A stretch of DNA of 64,000 nucleotides from Escherichia coli (lineage in GTDB: Bacteria; Pseudomonadota; Gammaproteobacteria; Enterobacterales; Enterobacteriaceae), in assembly GCF_002854065.1 (NCBI RefSeq), contig NZ_CP024151.1; one strand, written 5' to 3'. A program made the translations under genes and the position numbers. Every line of letters starts with the position of its first letter. The first letter of the stretch is position 1. This document shows positions 1 to 10,529 of this stretch, piece after piece. Under the pieces are notes generated by a model. The model was not told the origin of the DNA and ran no database searches. It worked only from the letters and a program-made list of their open reading frames with translations.

Positions 1-125
1 TGCAGTTGCCATGTTTTACGGCAGTGAGAGCAGAGATAGCGCTGATGTCCGGCGGTGCTTTTGCCGTTACGCACCACCCCGTCAGTAGCTGAACAGGAGG
101 GACAGCTGATAGAAACAGAAGCCAC
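1..125 (-). CDS. insA: IS1 InsA, N-terminal part (3' end lies outside window)
   Basis: Minus-strand translation from GTG at 125 reads [41 protein letters not shown], the InsA N-terminus. Confidence 0.7.
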
Positions 126-180
126 TGGAGCACCTCAAAAACACCATCATACACTAAATCAGTAAGTTGGCAGCATCACC
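1..180 (-). mobile_element. IS1, terminal ~180 bp (element continues beyond window start)
   Basis: Reverse complement of 158-180 is the IS1 terminal inverted repeat GGTGATGCTGCCAACTTACTGAT; the following bases match the IS1 insA 5' region. Confidence 0.8.
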
Positions 181-709
181 AGATTCTGACCAGACGGTTC
201 AGGCTGTACGCTTACGGTTGTCGTGAAGGAGGGGGAAGACCATCTCATCGCTTACTGATGTTCCTGTTACTATATCTATTGAATCCTGGCTATAAGTTCG
301 CTGTTTAAAGAATTATATGAATAGCACCAATTAATAAGTTAATATTAAAAAGAAGACAGACCTTCTAAATAAACGCATTGAATCTATGTTCCCTTGTGAG
401 TGTTTTTACGTTTGGCGGGAGGCCTGGAACCTCGGGATTTAACTTTTCTTTTTATATTTTTGATAAAATCATCAATAGAAAACTGAATCGTCTCTGATAA
501 ATACTGTTGAGCTATATCTGTACTCTGTTTTTCTAAATCAGAAGCTTTCTTTGTTTCAAGAACAGATTTGATTAACTCCTTACGTTGTGTACACCAAATC
601 TCGTCAGATGAACAGTATTTTTTATTTTCGTGTTTGTTCATTATTTATTGCTCTAACTGATTTATTTCCCTATATCCAGGGAGTAGATATATCTACTCCC
701 TGCTTATTA

Positions 710-2407
710 TCATTTCACGTTAGTTAAAGATTTTTTTATATTCTCAAATTTGGCTTGGTTGATATCACTGATCGGTTTTTGACTTGACGTGATGAAGTCA
801 ATCATAACAGCCTTCATATTCTTAACCACATCAGGATGGGATGCAGAGAGATCTTTAGTTTGTTGCAGATCGTTGATATCGTACAGAGCTAGTTTATTCT
901 CTGCATAGGTGTAAACCAGAGAATAATCGTTGCTTCTTACAGTGTATGCAAACTGGCTTAAGTCTTCTGTATGTGGGTTGTGCGGATAATCATCAGACTC
1001 TTTTCTCACGAATTTATGATATCCGTTCCAGAATGCAGTGTTCTCTTCGTCCCACCAGTGAGAATAAGAGGTAATCCAGGACAGATATTTGTGAGGTTCG
1101 CCAGCTGCAGATTTCTTATCAGCTCCTTTCTGTACATATGGCAATAATGATACACCATCTAGTTTCAGAGAAGCAGGGATCTTGATATCTGCGGCATCTA
1201 AAGCGGTCGGATAGAAGTCCATTGATGAAACCAGTTTGTCATAATCACCCGTTTTCAGCTTGCCATTCCACCACATGAACATAGGTGTATGCATACCACC
1301 CGGATACGGTTGGCCTTTGTAACCAGCCTGCGCACCATTCAGTGGCAGTGGACCATCAATTACAGCACCGTTATCAGAGGTGAACAGAATGATGGTGTTG
1401 TCGTACTGACCTTTTTCCTTAAGTGTATTCAGGATCTTTTTAACCCCCTGGTCAACGGAGTAAATTGACGCATAATAGTTATCAGCAGTCTTGCTACCAG
1501 TGTTGAATTTCTCCTGATAGTTTTTAGGCGCAGGCTGATCGTTAGGCAGGTGTGGTGCACTGTATGCCAGATAAATCATAAATGGCTGTTCCAGTTTGCT
1601 TGCACGGTCAATTACACCAATTGCTTCATCAGTTAATTGATCACTAATGTACCCTTCAGCTTTAATGTTTTCACGGTTACGGAACAATGACGGGGAGTTA
1701 TAAAGTGAAACGCCGGATGCGTGATAGCCCATGAAGTAGTTGAAGCCACGATTCTGAGGTTGCCATTCTTCTGCGGAGAAGGTGGTGAAGTTATCGTGGT
1801 AGTCACGGGTTTGTTTTTCTTCAGGCACACCTACGTTGCTGATTTTTGATAAGTGCCACTTACCGATTGCTGCAGTGTAATAACCATGATTCTGAAGTAA
1901 TTCAGACAGGAATGTTTCTTCCAGAGGGATACCATCCTGTGCATCAGAATTTGAATATACACCGAAGCGAGCAGGAGCTCGCGCCGTCAGGATTGCGGCA
2001 CGTGAAGGGCCAGAGACACCGTGTGCAACATAGCCGTTAGTGAATTTTACACCTTCGTCCATCAGGGCCGCTAATGTTGGAGTGGATTTTTTTGCAGCTT
2101 CAATTGCTTTATCAATACCTATTTTGTATGTATCAACAACATTTCGGTTATCCATCGTTTTAGGGTCAAATGAACTATCATCAAAAGGCAATTGTCCATA
2201 CCCTAAATCATCCATTGTTAAAACAATGATATTTGGCTTACCTTTAGTGCTGTATTCCGTCGGCGTGAAGTCCGCAAAGGCAACATTGGTTTTTGTTGCT
2301 TTGAGCTTAACATCATCTGCTGCATTTGCAGTACTCATCATCAGACCAGATGCTAATATAAGTGATATTGATGAGTTAAGCAGTTTTTTATTTAACTGAT
2401 GTTCCAT
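710..2407 (-). CDS. Sulfatase family enzyme (Ser-type, signal peptide; YdeN/AtsA-like)
   Basis: 565 aa ORF with N-terminal signal peptide and sulfatase signature SGPSRAAILTARAP (S-x-P-x-R); ATG preceded by GAAGGA. Confidence 0.8.
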   Translation of the reverse strand: MEHQLNKKLLNSSISLILASGLMMSTANAADDVKLKATKTNVAFADFTPTEYSTKGKPNIIVLTMDDLGYGQLPFDDSSFDPKTMDNRNVVDTYKIGIDKAIEAAKKSTPTLAALMDEGVKFTNGYVAHGVSGPSRAAILTARAPARFGVYSNSDAQDGIPLEETFLSELLQNHGYYTAAIGKWHLSKISNVGVPEEKQTRDYHDNFTTFSAEEWQPQNRGFNYFMGYHASGVSLYNSPSLFRNRENIKAEGYISDQLTDEAIGVIDRASKLEQPFMIYLAYSAPHLPNDQPAPKNYQEKFNTGSKTADNYYASIYSVDQGVKKILNTLKEKGQYDNTIILFTSDNGAVIDGPLPLNGAQAGYKGQPYPGGMHTPMFMWWNGKLKTGDYDKLVSSMDFYPTALDAADIKIPASLKLDGVSLLPYVQKGADKKSAAGEPHKYLSWITSYSHWWDEENTAFWNGYHKFVRKESDDYPHNPHTEDLSQFAYTVRSNDYSLVYTYAENKLALYDINDLQQTKDLSASHPDVVKNMKAVMIDFITSSQKPISDINQAKFENIKKSLTNVK

Positions 2408-2502
2408 ATGGTATTCCTTCTGAGTTGCATCACGAACATTTATTAATAATAAAAGCCTCTGATATAAATAAAAACTATGTAAATCGTTTAAATGGATACC
2501 TG

Positions 2503-3639
2503 TTAAAACTGATACATCATACCAACAGCAAGTATATTATCGGTTGCAACTCCAGCCTTTTTGGTAAATTCGCTTTCATCAATAAGGTTAATTTTGTAAT
2601 CAATAAGAAGTGACATGTTTTTGTTCAGAAAGTAGTTTGCGCCAACATCAATATACTCAACAAGAGACTGATCGCCATAGTTTACTATTCCACCTTTAAC
2701 ATCCATCCCTTTGGACTGAACGTAAGCCAGTGAAGGACGCAGGCCGAAATCAAACATATACTGAGCCACAACTTCAATATTCCGTGCTTTATCTGCGATG
2801 CCTGCGCTACCAAATGGAGTCATATTTCGGGTTTCAGAGTAGTCAGCTGCCAGATACAGGTCATTATCATTATACTTGACCCCAACACCTGCAAACTCCG
2901 CATGTTTTCCCCCGGCAATCCAGCGAGGCGTAATAACTTCTTTTCCTTCTGAATCTTTCGATGTCATGAAACGTTTACGGCCTTCTTTTTCCTGCAGACT
3001 GGTTCTGTCGGCATTAGTGTAAGCGGCAACGATTCCAAAACCTTCATAGTCATAGCTTACGGAGAAACCATATCCATCACCATTAGCTTCAAGTAAATTA
3101 TCACGGTCATTTTTACCCTGATATTGAGCAGAAAAAGTAAGTCCATCAACAAGCCCGAAGAAATCTGTATTGCGCCAGGTCAGAACTCCGGTTGTTCTGC
3201 CGGTCATATAGTTATCAGAGTAAGTCCAGCTGTCACCACCAAAGTCCGGAAGTACGTCAGTCAGAGCCCCCACATCATAGGCAACACCATAGTTTCGCCC
3301 ATAATCAAGTGAACCGAGTATATTGTGGCGAATACCTGCAAATGCCAGACGATTTTTATCGTTGCGTACTTCACTTTCTGTCTTAAACCCCAGGAACTGG
3401 TATTCCCACTGACCAAAGCCAGTCAGGCTCTCATTAATTTGTGTTTCGCCTTTGAAACCAAGACGTGCAAATGTTCTGTCGCCATCCATAGAACCATCAG
3501 AGATGTAATGACGGGCTTTAACGCGACCATAAAAATCCAGTTTATTACCGTCTTTATTATAGATTTCTGCTGCCTGTGTTGCCTCACACAGCATTAATGC
3601 AGAAACGACAGAGCACACAACCACACTTAATTTTCGCAT
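2503..3639 (-). CDS. Outer-membrane general porin (OmpC/OmpF/PhoE family)
   Basis: Starts MRKLSVVV... with signal peptide, AEIYNKDGNKLD and GFGQWEYQ motifs, C-terminal ...MMYQF; start taken at internal ATG (track M8). Confidence 0.8.
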   Translation of the reverse strand: MRKLSVVVCSVVSALMLCEATQAAEIYNKDGNKLDFYGRVKARHYISDGSMDGDRTFARLGFKGETQINESLTGFGQWEYQFLGFKTESEVRNDKNRLAFAGIRHNILGSLDYGRNYGVAYDVGALTDVLPDFGGDSWTYSDNYMTGRTTGVLTWRNTDFFGLVDGLTFSAQYQGKNDRDNLLEANGDGYGFSVSYDYEGFGIVAAYTNADRTSLQEKEGRKRFMTSKDSEGKEVITPRWIAGGKHAEFAGVGVKYNDNDLYLAADYSETRNMTPFGSAGIADKARNIEVVAQYMFDFGLRPSLAYVQSKGMDVKGGIVNYGDQSLVEYIDVGANYFLNKNMSLLIDYKINLIDESEFTKKAGVATDNILAVGMMYQF

Positions 3640-4192
3640 AAAAAAATCCCCTGTGCACATTTTTAGTATGGTTTTAAAAATTAAACTATGGCGAAAAAAT
3701 TATCACCATGCAAATATGTAACAAAATATTTCTCGGTGATCTATGTTGTTGTTTTTATTTGAGGTTGTATATTTTCTAGTGTATTTGACTTTTCTTTCTT
3801 AAGTGTTATTTCTCGACCTTTATCACAGAACCATCTCCCTGGATATCCCCATAACATTGCATGAAAAGCAAGTTTTACCAATCTTGATTTTCAGTGTTAA
3901 ATAAGATTAATAACTGTAATTCTGCAAAAAAAAGAACACCATATGTAGTATGACTACGTATTCCACTCTGTTCGTTCACGGACTGGCATCGAAGTCTGAG
4001 GTGTACTGGCAATAGCGGATACAGTCATTTGTTCTTTTTTTAAGCATTCATCCGATGATACTTTTCCTGAATGCTACCGGAGTGGTATTCCCCTGCCGTG
4101 ATAGACTGGCCCCCTGAATCTCCAGACAACCAATATCACTTAAATAAGTGATAGTCTTAATACTAGTTTTTAGACTAGTCATTGGAGAGCAG

Positions 4193-4558
4193 ATGATTGA
4201 TGTCTTAGGACCGGAGAAACGCAGACGGCGTACTACACAGGAAAAGATCGCTATTGTTCAGCAGAGTTTTGAACCGGGAATGACGGTCTCCCTTGTAGCC
4301 CGGCAACACGGTGTGGCAGCCAGCCAGCTATTTCTCTGGCGCAAGCAATACCAGGAGGGAAGTCTTACTGCTGTGGCCGCAGGAGAACAGGTCGTTCCTG
4401 CCTCTGAACTTGCTGCTGCCATGAAGCAGATTAAAGAACTCCAGCGCCTGCTCGGCAAAAAAACGATGGAAAATGAACTCCTTAAAGAAGCCGTTGAATA
4501 TGGGCGTGCAAAAAAGTGGATAGCGCACGCGCCCTTATTGCCCGGGGATGGGGAGTAA
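4193..4558 (+). CDS. insC: IS2 transposase OrfA (InsC)
   Basis: [56 protein letters not shown]... matches IS2 InsC. Confidence 0.9.
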
Positions 4559-5421
4559 GCTTAGTCAGCCGTTGTCTCCGGGTGTCGCGTGCGCAGTTGC
4601 ACGTCATTCTCAGACGAACCGATGACTGGAAAGATGGTCGCCGCAGCCGTCACTCAGATGATATGGATGTACTTCTCCGTATACACCATGTTATCGGAGA
4701 GCTGCCCACGTATGGTTATCGTCGGGTATGGGCGCTGCTTCGCAGACAGGCCGAACTTGATGGTATGCCTGCGATCAATGCCAAACGTGTTTACCGGATC
4801 ATGTGCCAGAATGCGCTGTTGCTTGAGCGAAAAACCGCTGTACCGCCATCGAAGCGGGCACATACTGGCAAAGTGGCCGTGAAAGAAAGCAATCAACGAT
4901 GGTGCTCTGACGGGTTCGAGTTCCGCTGTGATAACGGAGAAAAACTGCGAGTCACGTTCGCGCTGGACTGCTGTGACCGTGAGGCACTGTACTGGGCGGT
5001 CACTACGGGCGGCTTCGACAGTGAAACAGTACAGGACGTCATGCTGGGAGCGGTTGAACGCCGCTTCGGCAACGAGCTTCCGGCGTCTCCAGTAGAGTGG
5101 CTGACGGATAATGGTTCATGCTACCGGGCTAATGAAACACGGCAGTTTGCCCGGATGTTGGGGCTTGAACCGAAGAACACGGCGGTGCGGAGTCCGGAGA
5201 GTAACGGCATAGCAGAGAGCTTCGTGAAAACGATAAAGCGTGACTACATCAGTGTCATGCCTAAACCAGACGGGTTAACGGCAGCAAAGAACCTTGCAGA
5301 GGCGTTCGAGCATTATAACGAATGGCATCCGCATAGTGCACTGGGTTATCGCTCGCCACGGGAATATCTACGGCAGCAGGCCAGTAATGGGTTAAGTGAT
5401 AACAGGTGTCTGGAAATATAG
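4516..5421 (+). CDS. insD: IS2 transposase OrfB (InsD), DDE integrase domain
   Basis: 301 aa ORF overlapping insC in another frame, as in IS3-family elements; matches IS2 InsD. Confidence 0.9.
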
Positions 5422-5832
5422 GGGCAAATCCAGTATCCGGATGTGCTGCCAGCCTTCTCAGTTAACCGATGTTTTCCGGGCTTTTTGCCATACTGAGGAC
5501 TGATAACGTATTCCTGGTCGTAAAACCCGTCAATATGCGCCGGGGCATCGACAAAACTGACACAGTACGTCCGGAAAGAACTTAACGCTGCATGGCACGA
5601 CAATGCTGCCTTTGTCTTTACCAACAAGGCTCGTTCCCGCATAAAAGTTCTACGCCGGGATAAACATGGCGTATGGCTGCGTCAGGCCTTCACTACTTCA
5701 CACCGGAAGTCTTCCAGCCTGACACGAATATACCGTCCGGGCTCTTTCGCAGGTGCAAACAGTTTTTCACATTCGGCGAATGTCATTTCTGAATCCTGGT
5801 AACGCAACCACTGAACCGGCATATTACCGGGT

Positions 5833-6438
5833 TTGATTATTGTCGCAGTTATTTTATATCGTTTCCCCATATCGCCTCTCATCCTGACAACAAAATTACC
5901 GGCTGAGCCAGGGGGCCCTCACCCCCCTATAAGGGGTCCGCTTGGAAACATATCGAAGAAAACGGCCGGCGGGAGGAATACGGCGCGCTACCTGGGTCGT
6001 TATCTGAAGAAGCCGCCGATAGCAGCCTCCCGGCTGGCACATTACAACGGAGGGGCGAGCCTGAGCCTCCGTTACCTGGACCACAAAATGGGAGAAACGG
6101 CGACGGAAACGCTGACACAGCGAGAGCTGGTCGCGAGGCTGAAACAGCACATCCCGGAGAAGTTTTTTAAGATGGTGAGGTACTTCGGGTTCCTTGCCAA
6201 CCGGGTGTGTGGAGAGAAGCTGCCGCAGGTGTACCGTGCTCTGGGGATGGATAAACCGGAAGCAGTGGCGAAAGTGTGCTATGCACAAATGATGAAACAG
6301 TTCCTGAGTCGTGATCCGTTCGAATGCGTGCTGTGTGGCAACCGGATGGTATACCGCCGGTCCCTTGCGGGGCTGAATGTATCAGGGCTGAAGAAAAACG
6401 CGCGGGATATCAGTCTGCTGAGGTATATGCTGGCCTGA
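5833..6438 (+). pseudogene. IS91-family transposase, C-terminal remnant
   Basis: ORF contains ARYLGRYLKKPPIAASRLAHYNGG...LRYLDHK, typical of IS91/IS801 transposase C-termini; no N-terminal HUH/Y2 domain, left part cut by IS2. Confidence 0.4.
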
Positions 6439-6704
6439 CGCAGGCTAAGTGTGCCCGGGAATTGGTGCAGGAATAAAAAACAGCCTGTTGCGGTATAAGA
6501 ATCGACCATGCAGAGAGATAAAACACCGGAGTGGTGGGAAAAGCAGAAGAGCTCACGTGGCATAAGGCGTGGACAGCGGTATCGTCTGGTTTTTCAATTT
6601 CCTATACGTCAAGGATATTTAATGGAATATCAAACATTTGGCCTGATAACAATGCTCAAGGATTAATACCTGCAGGCTATGTTAAAGTTGTCCCCACACA
6701 CAAT

Positions 6705-6980
6705 CTACCTGTTTTCTCGTGTGTGCCACAGGCGCAATACATAAATAGTCTGGCCAGTAAGTTCGTAACGGATTTCGTACTCGCCAGCATAAATCCGTCT
6801 GACCTCCCTGGGTTCAAACTGAAACAACTGTTCTCCCATACGTGGATGAGTTAACAGAATGACCGGTGCCTGTGTCAGGGACTGCACCGTTCTGGCTGCA
6901 GCTGGTTTACTGGCCAGCGCCAGAAAATCATATAACCGCGCCAAATCAGAAAGCGCCTTACTGGTCCACTTCAGTTCCAT
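6705..6980 (-). CDS. Type II toxin, RelE/ParE family
   Basis: 91 aa, start overlaps the stop of the upstream small gene; pattern ...RRIYAGEYEIRYELTGQTIYVLRLWHTRE typical of ParE/RelE. Confidence 0.75.
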   Translation of the reverse strand: MELKWTSKALSDLARLYDFLALASKPAAARTVQSLTQAPVILLTHPRMGEQLFQFEPREVRRIYAGEYEIRYELTGQTIYVLRLWHTRENR

Positions 6981-7264
6981 CAGCGAGGCACCGGTAACGG
7001 ATTGTCAGTACCGAGGCTGTCCGCCCAGGCCTGTACAGCCTGATGGTCGATAACCTGTCCGGATGTCACATCGTCCAGGGCTTCCAGCGTCAGGCGATTA
7101 CGCTCCTCCTCCTGGGCAAGCCATGCAGAAAGCGCCTGTTTGATAATCCAGCCCCGGGACCGTTCCAGTCTGGCGGCCATCTGGTCGACTTTATCAGCCA
7201 TAGGTAATGGCACATGCGCAGTAATTACTTTTGTTACTTGTGCGGTATTGTTTTTCATTTGCAT
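6980..7264 (-). CDS. Type II antitoxin, ribbon-helix-helix (CopG-like)
   Basis: 94 aa immediately upstream of the toxin with 1-nt overlap; RHH-like segment RLERSRGWIIKQALSAWL; start could be the track M1 or the ATG 6 nt downstream. Confidence 0.7.
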   Translation of the reverse strand: MQMKNNTAQVTKVITAHVPLPMADKVDQMAARLERSRGWIIKQALSAWLAQEEERNRLTLEALDDVTSGQVIDHQAVQAWADSLGTDNPLPVPR

Positions 7265-7899
7265 ATCCGATTAGTTGTTAATCATATTTAATCATAGTGA
7301 TTACTTTCAGACGGAACAAGACAAATAATGCGCGTCAGCGCATGTAAGGCGGCATACGGTGGTTACATGTAGCACAGGAGTAAAACCGCCGAAGCCCGGC
7401 GTAAGCCGGTACGGACTGATAGATTTCACCTTACCCATCCCCAGCCCTGCCAGACCATACCCGCTTTCAGCCATGAGAGAGCTTCTGTGCGCGGTCGGAG
7501 TGGTCCCGACGAGGGTTTACCCGAAGTCGGGGCGTATCTCCGCGTTAGCGGGCCGTCAGGGCCGCTTACGAGCGTGTACTGAGAACTTCCAGCCAGAAGA
7601 CTGACAGCAATGATAATGTAGTTACAACATTCATAATTAAAAGCGACTCTGTTCCGGCCCGAAGGGCCGGGGCGGGGCCGCTTTTCAGTTATGAGGGAGG
7701 GGCTTTGTGGTTTCAGTTCTGCGCGGGACCGGGGTTTTCCTGGTGGTTGTATTTGAGTGTTGTAACTAAAATGGCTCCGGTCGGGGCCCGCCGCTTGCGG
7801 TGGGAGGTGCATATCTGTCTGTCCACAGGACAGGCAGTGAATAGGTTTTCTTTTTAAATGAATGTAGTTAAGTAGTTTAAAGGAGATATAAACAGGTGT

Positions 7900-8174
7900 T
7901 TAAAAGATACATTGCACCCTGTAAGGCTGGCGGATGGCGCTTTATGACATGAACGGTTGTAACCTTATGGGGAAGTCCCTTGCAGTTAAATGTGGATAAG
8001 CAAAATTCCTCGTCTGTGAGGCGTGTTTTGTATCAAAAACAGGAGGGACCGGATGCACCTGAAGGTGGATGATGAGGTTGTTTTTTGTATGCGGTGCTGT
8101 TTTTTTGTTCGCCGACAGGCTTCAGGCGTGCAGATGCCTCCGGTGCGGGCCGGATTATTCAGAGGAGGTCACTT
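7900..8174 (-). other. RepFIIA-type origin of replication (oriR) region, approximate
   Basis: Immediately downstream of repA1; DnaA box TGTGGATAA at about 7991-7999; AT-rich stretch. Confidence 0.5.
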
Positions 8175-9032
8175 TCAGGGGGAAGCTGTGGCCAGCCGGC
8201 TGTAATTACGGTTACGTGACAGAATCATGCGCTCTTTCACACGACGCTCCACTTCGCGTTTTACCGCCTCACGATTGGCAGTGAAGCGCCCTTCCGAGAT
8301 TTCACGCGTCAGCTGCCGTTTCACCAGGGTGACGATATCCTGACGTTCCCTGTTCGCATCACGACGCGCACGGGCACGCTTTATTCCACGGGACTTAAGC
8401 TCTGTCTGGTAACTGCGGAAACGCTCACGCACAAAACGCCAGGCTTTCGCTATCAGTTCATCCATACCCAGGGTATCCAGTCCCTGCTTTTTGCGCTGTC
8501 TGTTTTCCCATTCAACACGACTGCGGCGCGCAGCAACTACTGCATCCTCAGACACATCAAGGGCGGCAAATAGCGCCGGTGTGAACGTGATATCGGTCGG
8601 AATGTAGCACCCGATAAGCGGATCATATTCCGTCTGGTAGGTAATCAGTCCCAGCTCTGCAAGGAACGTCAAGGCTCGGGTGGCCCGGGTGATGGAGAGT
8701 TTTCCGGCAGCAGACTCCGTCGCCAGTCCGCACTCAATGGCCAGCGTAGTGATGGAGCACTGGACGCGGTTGGCCAGCGGGTCATAGTGAAAACACAGCC
8801 CCTGCAGCAGCGCATCAATAGCCCGGCGACGCAGTACCGGTGGCATGCGCCGACGCAGTCCCTTCGAACGGGCATGTGCCACATGAATGGCGAAATCAAA
8901 ACGGGAGGTGAAGCCCACCGCCTTTTCCATCAGTTTTTCGCAGAACTTCAGCGTTCCGGCACCTTCACGGGGTGTGAACACCGGATTCGGGTTTTTAACC
9001 TGTGAATAGTATTTTTGAAGGAGATCAGCCAT
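8175..9032 (-). CDS. repA1: Replication initiator RepA1 (IncFII)
   Basis: From internal ATG: [56 protein letters not shown]..., near-identical to R100/R1 RepA1. Confidence 0.9.
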
Positions 9033-9108
9033 GTCCCCCTCCAACACTATTCCCCCTCCTACGGGCGGCAACTAGCTCGTCTGGGCCGACACGTAAAGTT
9101 TCGAACAT
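9025..9108 (-). CDS. tap: repA1 leader peptide (tap/repA6-like), translationally coupled
   Basis: 27-codon [30 protein letters not shown] whose stop overlaps the repA1 start codon, the arrangement known for IncFII tap. Confidence 0.45.
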
Positions 9109-9805
9109 ATCTGGTCTGAACCAGATGGTTCCTCCATCAAAAGCGATGAGATGAAGATCATTATCAAGAGTTTTGAGGGCTCTCCAAACACGAGTGTATG
9201 AACCTCCACTACAAACTGAAAGCTCTTTAACAGATAAGTTAACTTTGTTCGTATCAGGGATGTAGTGTGCGCACATTACTTGTACGAGGGAAACATAAAA
9301 ACTAACCATCGACGCGCTGATTTTATTTTTACGTTTGCCATGCGCTATTGCAAGAAAACCTCTGATGAAGATCAGATGCTTGAAGGAGTCAAAATGAGCC
9401 CTTTTCTGGAGAAGGCAGCAAAACGGGTGAGGATACTTGCTGGAATCAATGTGAAGATCTGATTCAATCCCACCCGCTATTACTGAATGTGTTTCATGAT
9501 TAGCCACACCATCCTGCACTTACAATGCACAGAAGGAGTGAGCACAGAAAGAAGTCTTGAACTTTTCCGGGCATATAACTATACTCCCCGCATAGCTGAA
9601 TTGTTGGCTATGCGGTTTTATGGGGCCCCGGTAATCTTTCTAGTCGCCAAACTTGAAGAAGATTATCGGGGTTTTCGCTTTTCTGGCTCCTGTAAATCCA
9701 CATCAGAACCAGTTCCCTGCCACCTTACGGCGTGGCCAGCCACAAAATTCCTTAAACGATCAGCAATCTACCACTCACTCCTGAGATAAGCAAGAATGTG
9801 AATAT

Positions 9806-10063
9806 TTACGAAGTCGCTCTGCGTTTCAACTCTGATTCAATCAGTTTTTCAAGCATCTGCGCCTGAGTAATACCTTCCTCATCCGCAAGTTCACTCAGCC
9901 TGTCTTTTAACCGGGCCTGAATAACCGCATGAAAAGCCTTATGAGTGTTGCTTCTGCGAGCCAGAGAAGCTCTTTGCCTCTCTCTGGCCGGAACAGGGTT
10001 ACCTTTCCGGTATGTACGCTTGGTGCCTGATGAGGAAGTCACTGCATTTTCTGTCTGCGACAT
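9806..10063 (-). CDS. copB: Copy-number control repressor CopB (RepA2)
   Basis: [11 protein letters not shown]...[17 protein letters not shown] resembles R100 RepA2/CopB. Confidence 0.85.
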
Positions 10064-10178
10064 CTCGCCTCCTCAATTCTCAAACAGGGATCGTTTCGCA
10101 GAGAATACTACAGTTTTTTGAAATCAGCGACTTGAAAGTTGTGACGATGATCTGTGTTGGCGCACAAATCATGTCTGA

Positions 10179-10529
10179 TTACGACCGTTTAATGTGATTT
10201 TGATAATGAAATGACTGAAAAGCTGGAAATGCCTTAGCCAGGGTGCCGGCCCCGGGCGGGACCGGCTGTTTCTGGTATATAGGATGTCTGCCCCTGAAAT
10301 ACCTCACACTTCCGGAAAGCGGGGACTTCCGTGCTTCGTAGGCCAGAGTTACCTGCACCACTGTATTTCCTCTGTGAATATTCAGCTCACATAACCGTTC
10401 CCTGAATATCAGTGAAAAACACAACACCATGGCGCACACGGCGAGCAACCCGATAAGGGCATATTTCGTCATAAACTTTGACCTCTCTGCAAAGAAGAGG
10501 CTACAATCAGTAGTGTTAAGGTACTTCAT
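10179..10529 (-). CDS. srnB: SrnB/PndA (Hok-family) toxin locus: mok-like leader in frame with toxin; ORF lacks the expected stop
   Basis: MKYLNTTDCSLFFAERSKF-MTKYALIGLLAVCAMVLCFSLIFRERLCELNIHRGNTVVQVTLAYEARK matches SrnB; reading frame continues 48 codons past ...EARK. Confidence 0.7.
   Translation of the reverse strand: MKYLNTTDCSLFFAERSKFMTKYALIGLLAVCAMVLCFSLIFRERLCELNIHRGNTVVQVTLAYEARKSPLSGSVRYFRGRHPIYQKQPVPPGAGTLAKAFPAFQSFHYQNHIKRS

Follow-up and report, generated by a model that had tools for sequence, protein, structure and literature searches.

The complete IS2 at positions 4102-5432 of the window (the whole stretch of 64,000 nucleotides analysed here, which belongs to an IncF conjugative plasmid of Escherichia coli) stands in the place of 351 bp that IS2-free relatives carry between the same two flanks. 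We consider this very probably to be an IS-associated adjacent deletion within one imported segment of DNA. The reading builds directly on four observations, namely the missing 351 bp, the intact ends of IS2, the colinearity of the flanks and the single origin of the plasmid copies.

The IS2 copy and its surroundings

Positions 1-10181 of the window are identical to plasmid NZ_CP080082.1, and an F-type tra region occupies positions 10000-34000 and is colinear with NZ_CP116170.1 and NZ_CP096835.1. The features that matter for the argument are the following.

1-180, minus strand: partial IS1 (IS1A-like), with the inverted repeat GGTGATGCTGCCAACT at ~165-180 on the reverse strand (RefSeq annotation of NZ_CP080082.1)
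181-215, minus strand: 35-bp end of an IS66-family element, cut by IS1; the reverse complement begins GTAAGCG (GTAAGCGTACAGCC...)
216-4101: left part of the island-derived segment, with a hypothetical gene, a sulfatase and the porin together with 441-462 bp of porin upstream region
2503-3660, minus strand: porin open reading frame, PGAP start at 3639 (Pfam Porin_1, E = 7e-124)
4097-4101: left 5-bp flank of IS2, CGTGA
4102-4143: left inverted repeat (IRL) of IS2
4193-4558: orfA, open (Pfam HTH_Tnp_1)
4510-4516: A6G slippery site of IS2 (-1 frameshift)
4516-5421: orfB, open, overlapping orfA (Pfam rve, DDE)
5392-5432: right inverted repeat (IRR) of IS2
5433-5437: right 5-bp flank of IS2, GTATC
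5433-5679, plus strand: IS66-family remnant, made up of the tnpA pseudogene 3' end and the tnpB pseudogene 5' part
5433-5503, plus strand: 3' end of the IS66-family tnpA pseudogene (PGAP)
5490-5679, plus strand: 5' part of the tnpB pseudogene, frameshifted (PGAP; Pfam TnpB_IS66 on the translated fragment)
5682-5882, minus strand: DUF1187 gene, the final gene of the island-derived segment (Pfam DUF1187, E = 2e-17)
5950-6438, plus strand: plasmid-side fragment (C-terminal part) of an IS91-family transposase (Pfam Y2_Tnp, HUH-type, profile positions 97-180 of 183 at 5950-6435)
6705-7264: RelE/ParE-CopG genes, right of the IS91-family fragment
~8175-9032: IncF repA, right of the RelE/ParE-CopG genes

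The identity given to 181-215 follows from GTAAGCG, which is the typical IS66-family terminus. The IS66-family material on the right flank is a remnant only, with no tnpC and no element ends. PGAP describes the IS91-family fragment as a transposase missing its N-terminus, and its similarity matches are annotated as IS91/IS1294.

The IS2 lies on the plus strand, starts with TAGACTGGCCCCC... and ends in ...GGGGCAAATCCA, and sequence comparison of the window found no other copy in it. It has the length, about 1331 bp, and the imperfect terminal inverted repeats (IRL TAGACTGG..., IRR ...AAATCCA) of an IS2. Against IS2A of E. coli K-12 (NC_000913.3, 381260-382590) it aligns without gaps at 95.3% nucleotide identity, a value that is borderline against the ISfinder isoform cut-offs. 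The two elements are alike in their 1331 bp, their termini (the same in both and complete to the last base), the absence of indels, the A6G frameshift site and the overlapping orfA and orfB, and they differ in 62 substitutions and in the 5-bp target-site duplication that the window copy lacks. The amino acid identity to the K-12 proteins is 100% for OrfA and 95.0% for OrfB. PGAP notes a programmed frameshift on the same plasmid sequence (NZ_CP080082.1), and its label there is just "IS3 family transposase", not IS2.

With both reading frames open, the slippery site kept and the ends intact, the copy looks functional. Copies 100% identical to it are found in chromosomes NZ_CP173239.1, NZ_CP063518.1, NZ_CM146014.1 and others, in strains that carry the plasmid, and by this token the isoform appears to be mobile at present.

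The two 5-bp flanks, CGTGA and GTATC, match at none of five positions, and no duplication of 3-9 bp was found at the IS2 ends in that register. When the boundaries are defined in the same way, K-12 IS2A has the 5-bp duplication ATTAC/ATTAC, and an independent IS2 of an IncI plasmid, close to a RelE/ParE module similar to that of the window, has GCTGG/GCTGG. The earlier note on this DNA, whose interval 4097-5437 is IS2 plus 5 bp on each side, was thus right that the element lacks a target-site duplication. The absence is explained by the 351-bp deletion; it belongs to the history of this insertion and is no feature of IS2 itself.

The ancestral junction in IS2-free relatives

The loci compared below are L004 of chromosome NZ_CP049979.1 and L002 and L003 of CP061233.1, with locus-internal coordinates. 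By BLAST, 2622-6503 of L004 matches window 216-4101 at 98.8% identity over 3,887 bp, a match that is found in L002 as well, and 6855-7332 of L004 matches window 5433-5910 at 99.0% identity. Between these two stretches L004 has, in place of IS2, the 351 bp at 6504-6854, and the breakpoints are exact to the base. The module in NZ_CP049979.1 adjoins an AraC regulator gene and the autotransporter gene espI.

The left flank is rare among plasmids, and CP061233.1 is one record that has it without IS2; its locus L002 reads ...CCTGCCGTGA, followed after 350 bp by GTATCCGGATGTGCTGCC..., the right flank of the window. This record ("plasmid pSTEC639_1", 1,005,770 bp) is filed as a plasmid and typed as non-mobilizable, holds the island locus that is chromosomal in other strains, and also has a paralogous copy of the IS66 remnant and DUF1187 about 86 kb away from the island locus. 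The record may represent part of a chromosome, or else a secondary replicon of very large size. Around 5540-5560 the tnpB remnant has an extra base in the plasmid copy (CGACAAAACTGAC) relative to both L002 and L003 (CGATACACTGAC), and at 5510-5580 it carries several clustered substitutions and is more diverged than the remaining flank.

Among the 5,426 complete E. coli genomes searched, about 100 chromosomes have the uninterrupted order of porin, IS66 tnpA/tnpB remnant and DUF1187. A query of the two flanks joined together (1580 bp) matched 99 chromosomes at a coverage of at least 80%. All 45 of the matches listed for it fall into two pieces that span 1930-1932 bp, which is 1580 + 351±1, and contiguous flanks without IS2 were found in none of these 45 matches from complete E. 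coli genomes. The ancestral junction can thus be rebuilt from the IS2-free relatives, mostly chromosomes, as two flanks with 351 bp between them, and no relative shows the flanks contiguous with a 5-bp duplication. Among the matches listed for the joined-flank query, the nearest IS2-free relative is only 99.2% identical, and the true donor is therefore unsampled.

The tnpA pseudogene of L004 (6717-6925) crosses the right breakpoint at 6854/6855, so the 351 bp are ancestral: the plasmid lineage lost them, and the chromosomes did not acquire them. A normal insertion whose 5-bp duplication later decayed by point mutation, or a 351-bp insertion in the chromosomal lineage, would have to be squared with this, and we give such explanations next to no weight. 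The missing duplication is all that speaks for them, while the flanks have no position of five in common although the surrounding DNA is about 99% conserved, and the 351 bp hold the 5' continuation of the very IS66 tnpA remnant that runs into the right flank of the window.

The same comparisons bear on the idea that the IS2 is the scar of a recombination between two IS2 copies in unrelated DNA, one in the cargo and one in the plasmid backbone, so that its flanks would never have been neighbours. Such a scar would be without a duplication, as the IS2 is, and it would not be out of place in a region rich in IS remnants, 2.7 kb from repA. It is nevertheless highly improbable, since about 100 chromosomes have the two flanks at a distance of 351 bp, with order and orientation unchanged, and since the change from island to backbone takes place at 5910/5911 and not at IS2. 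The earlier note had placed the element at a recombination or deletion junction and not at a simple insertion. A deletion junction it is, in view of the 351 bp in the IS2-free relatives, whereas a joining of unrelated DNA has to be given up because the flanks are one island locus. What had been taken for an unassignable fragment on the right can also be assigned, as positions 5433-5910 are the IS66 tnpA/tnpB remnant and DUF1187, which keep their synteny with the porin in about 100 chromosomes.

Distribution of the IS2-bearing junction

The junction with IS2 was found in 12 PLSDB plasmids, in each of them as one alignment piece over the left junction, and in 10 plasmid records of the RefSeq complete-genome set; no chromosome of the latter set has it. 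It is identical in all plasmid records, including those that depart from the window at 6003, at 5836 and at 4728, the last of these inside IS2. That otherwise divergent plasmids share it to this degree indicates that it arose in one event and was then inherited, and hence that a single IS2-plus-deletion event is ancestral to all sampled plasmid copies.

Strain DETEC-P1056 has both forms of the locus, IS2-free on chromosome NZ_CP116169.1 and IS2-bearing on plasmid NZ_CP116170.1. The chromosomal locus is 98.9% identical to the window flanks, and as the chromosomal and plasmid copies differ, this chromosome was not the direct donor.

Mechanism of the deletion

IS2 transposes by a copy-out-paste-in mechanism, and direct repeats are the normal result when its minicircle inserts (PMC3299598). 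Intact ends, no repeat and host DNA that is missing exactly from one terminus together form the signature of an IS-associated adjacent deletion. Two of the marks by which such a deletion is recognised are found here, as the IS-free relatives carry extra sequence between flanks that are colinear and in the same orientation, and the endpoint of the deletion lies exactly at an intact IS terminus.

The order of events is what we infer from these observations, and likewise the way in which the deletion came about. A segment of about 4.4 kb, with the hypothetical gene, the sulfatase, the porin, the IS66 tnpA/tnpB remnant and DUF1187, would have been captured by an IncF plasmid from an espI-linked type of E. 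coli chromosomal island. The IS2 isoform would then have inserted in, or at the edge of, the 351-bp stretch upstream of the porin, and an IS2-dependent deletion ending exactly at an IS2 terminus would have removed the 351 bp along with one of the two 5-bp repeats. The end product would be one intact IS2 whose left and right flanks, CGTGA and GTATC, are the borders of the lost interval. The deletion itself could have followed one of two routes. In one, a second IS2 would have been present nearby in direct orientation, followed by homologous recombination between both copies, and in the other an IS2 end, or the IR-IR junction of an IS2 dimer, would have been transposed intramolecularly into a nearby site. 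The two routes predict the same product, and either CGTGA or GTATC may have been the first target.

There are precedents for such a course of events. Of 83 IS movements in the E. coli long-term evolution experiment, 14 combined IS150, another member of the IS3 family, with the loss of 14 bp to 48,894 bp; none of the 14 had a duplication, and all were explained as an insertion followed by an adjacent deletion (PMC11708052). Our case resembles these "IS-del" events in that an IS3-family element replaces a lost stretch, with no duplication and with one intact IS left, and the 351 bp fall inside their size range; the difference is that the order of the IS150 events was observed through time, whereas the window has the end product alone (PMC11708052). 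The copy-out-paste-in elements IS30, IS911 and IS2 form tandem dimers whose IR-IR junction attacks nearby DNA, with deletions that begin at the edge of the inverted repeat (PMC9333248). The deletion described here likewise starts exactly at the inverted-repeat edge and leaves a single stable IS (PMC9333248), although unlike in those systems no dimer or junction is seen in the window, which has one IS2 copy only.

An intermediate with IS2, a duplication and the 351 bp still in place would be recognised by one of two junction strings. The first, GGGGCAAATCCACGTGAGGGAGGGCG, would make CGTGA the original target, with a deletion running rightward from IRR, and the second, GTGGTATCTAGACTGGCCCCCTG, would mean the opposite. 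Chimeric 300-bp queries (the IS2 right end + CGTGA + the start of the 351 bp, and the end of the 351 bp + GTATC + the IS2 left end) gave no match above 55% coverage in the 5,426 complete E. coli genomes for an intermediate with either duplication, and exact 23-26-mers of both junctions had 0 matches in JGI metagenome contigs. For a rare, single historical event this is expected, and it does not exclude an earlier state with IS2 and a duplication. No reciprocal product (a second IS2, or the 351 bp elsewhere) is seen in the window, and a search for microhomology at the deletion endpoints (...CCGTGA| versus ...CCCGGTG|) gave a weak resemblance that is not interpretable.

The lack of intermediates in the E. 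coli genomes and the JGI metagenome contigs is also what one would see if everything had happened in one step, with IS2 entering a break formed during the 351-bp deletion, no staggered cut of the target and no duplication ever made. A mechanism of this kind has been proposed for some IS5 and IS481 events (PMC11708052). Such a one-step entry is unlikely all the same, because the 14 of 14 IS3-family (IS150) cases were resolved to an insertion and then an adjacent deletion (PMC11708052), and because intermediates of a rare, single historical event are not to be expected in the first place. If it were true, it would be a natural case of break-associated, duplication-free insertion by an IS3-family element in a wild plasmid.

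Limits of the island-derived segment

Homology to the island, as seen in L004, starts exactly at window position 216, with the left limit at 215/216 beside the IS66-type end cut by IS1. On the other side it stops at 5910/5911, which is 478 bp beyond the right end of IS2, and the IS91-family remnant adjoins there. IS2 is thus not the maker of the boundary between cargo and replicon, which is clearly marked by other IS elements. The suggestion in the earlier note that IS activity shaped this boundary survives as far as these other elements are concerned, as they frame the module, and fails for IS2, which is not at 215/216 or 5910/5911. In the same way, the IS91-family transposase remnant that it had put into the sequence on the right is indeed present (Y2_Tnp), but begins only at about 5950, beyond the island segment.

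The 35-bp IS66-type end between IS1 and the start of the island at 216 tells us that the left border of the module is formed by an IS66-family element, which IS1 later cut; NZ_CP080082.1 has ISEc8-like pieces still further to the left. On the right, an unrelated IncF plasmid, CP057835.1 (locus L006, 4000/4001), has an IS421 that ends within one base of the equivalent of window 5910/5911, and its homology to the window begins at GGGGGCCCTC..., the same start as to the right of the island segment. That two different elements share this breakpoint suggests a hot spot at 5910/5911 or the end of an older element there. One-ended rolling-circle transposition of the island segment by the IS91 remnant was considered and rejected, as the transposase is without its N-terminus and there is no element end at 5910/5911.

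An S6-family serine protease autotransporter is encoded a few kb to the left of the module in NZ_CP080082.1 (locus L005, 1-957, left of the window start), and the chromosomal counterpart has espI, another S6 autotransporter, beside the module (L004, 9839-13104). The plasmid may have received a larger part of the island than the 4.4-kb segment alone.

Significance

The IS2 is a known element and the rearrangement is of a known kind, already present in public plasmid records, so the value lies in a corrected annotation: IS2 did not join the cargo to the replicon. Judging from the 441-462 bp of upstream region that are retained, the expression of the porin is probably unaffected. As all sampled plasmid copies go back to one IS2-plus-deletion event, the exact CGTGA-IS2-GTATC junction is usable as a lineage marker for the module. 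The porin/sulfatase module of these IncF plasmids derives from a chromosomal island that is also found in Shiga-toxin-producing and other E. coli.
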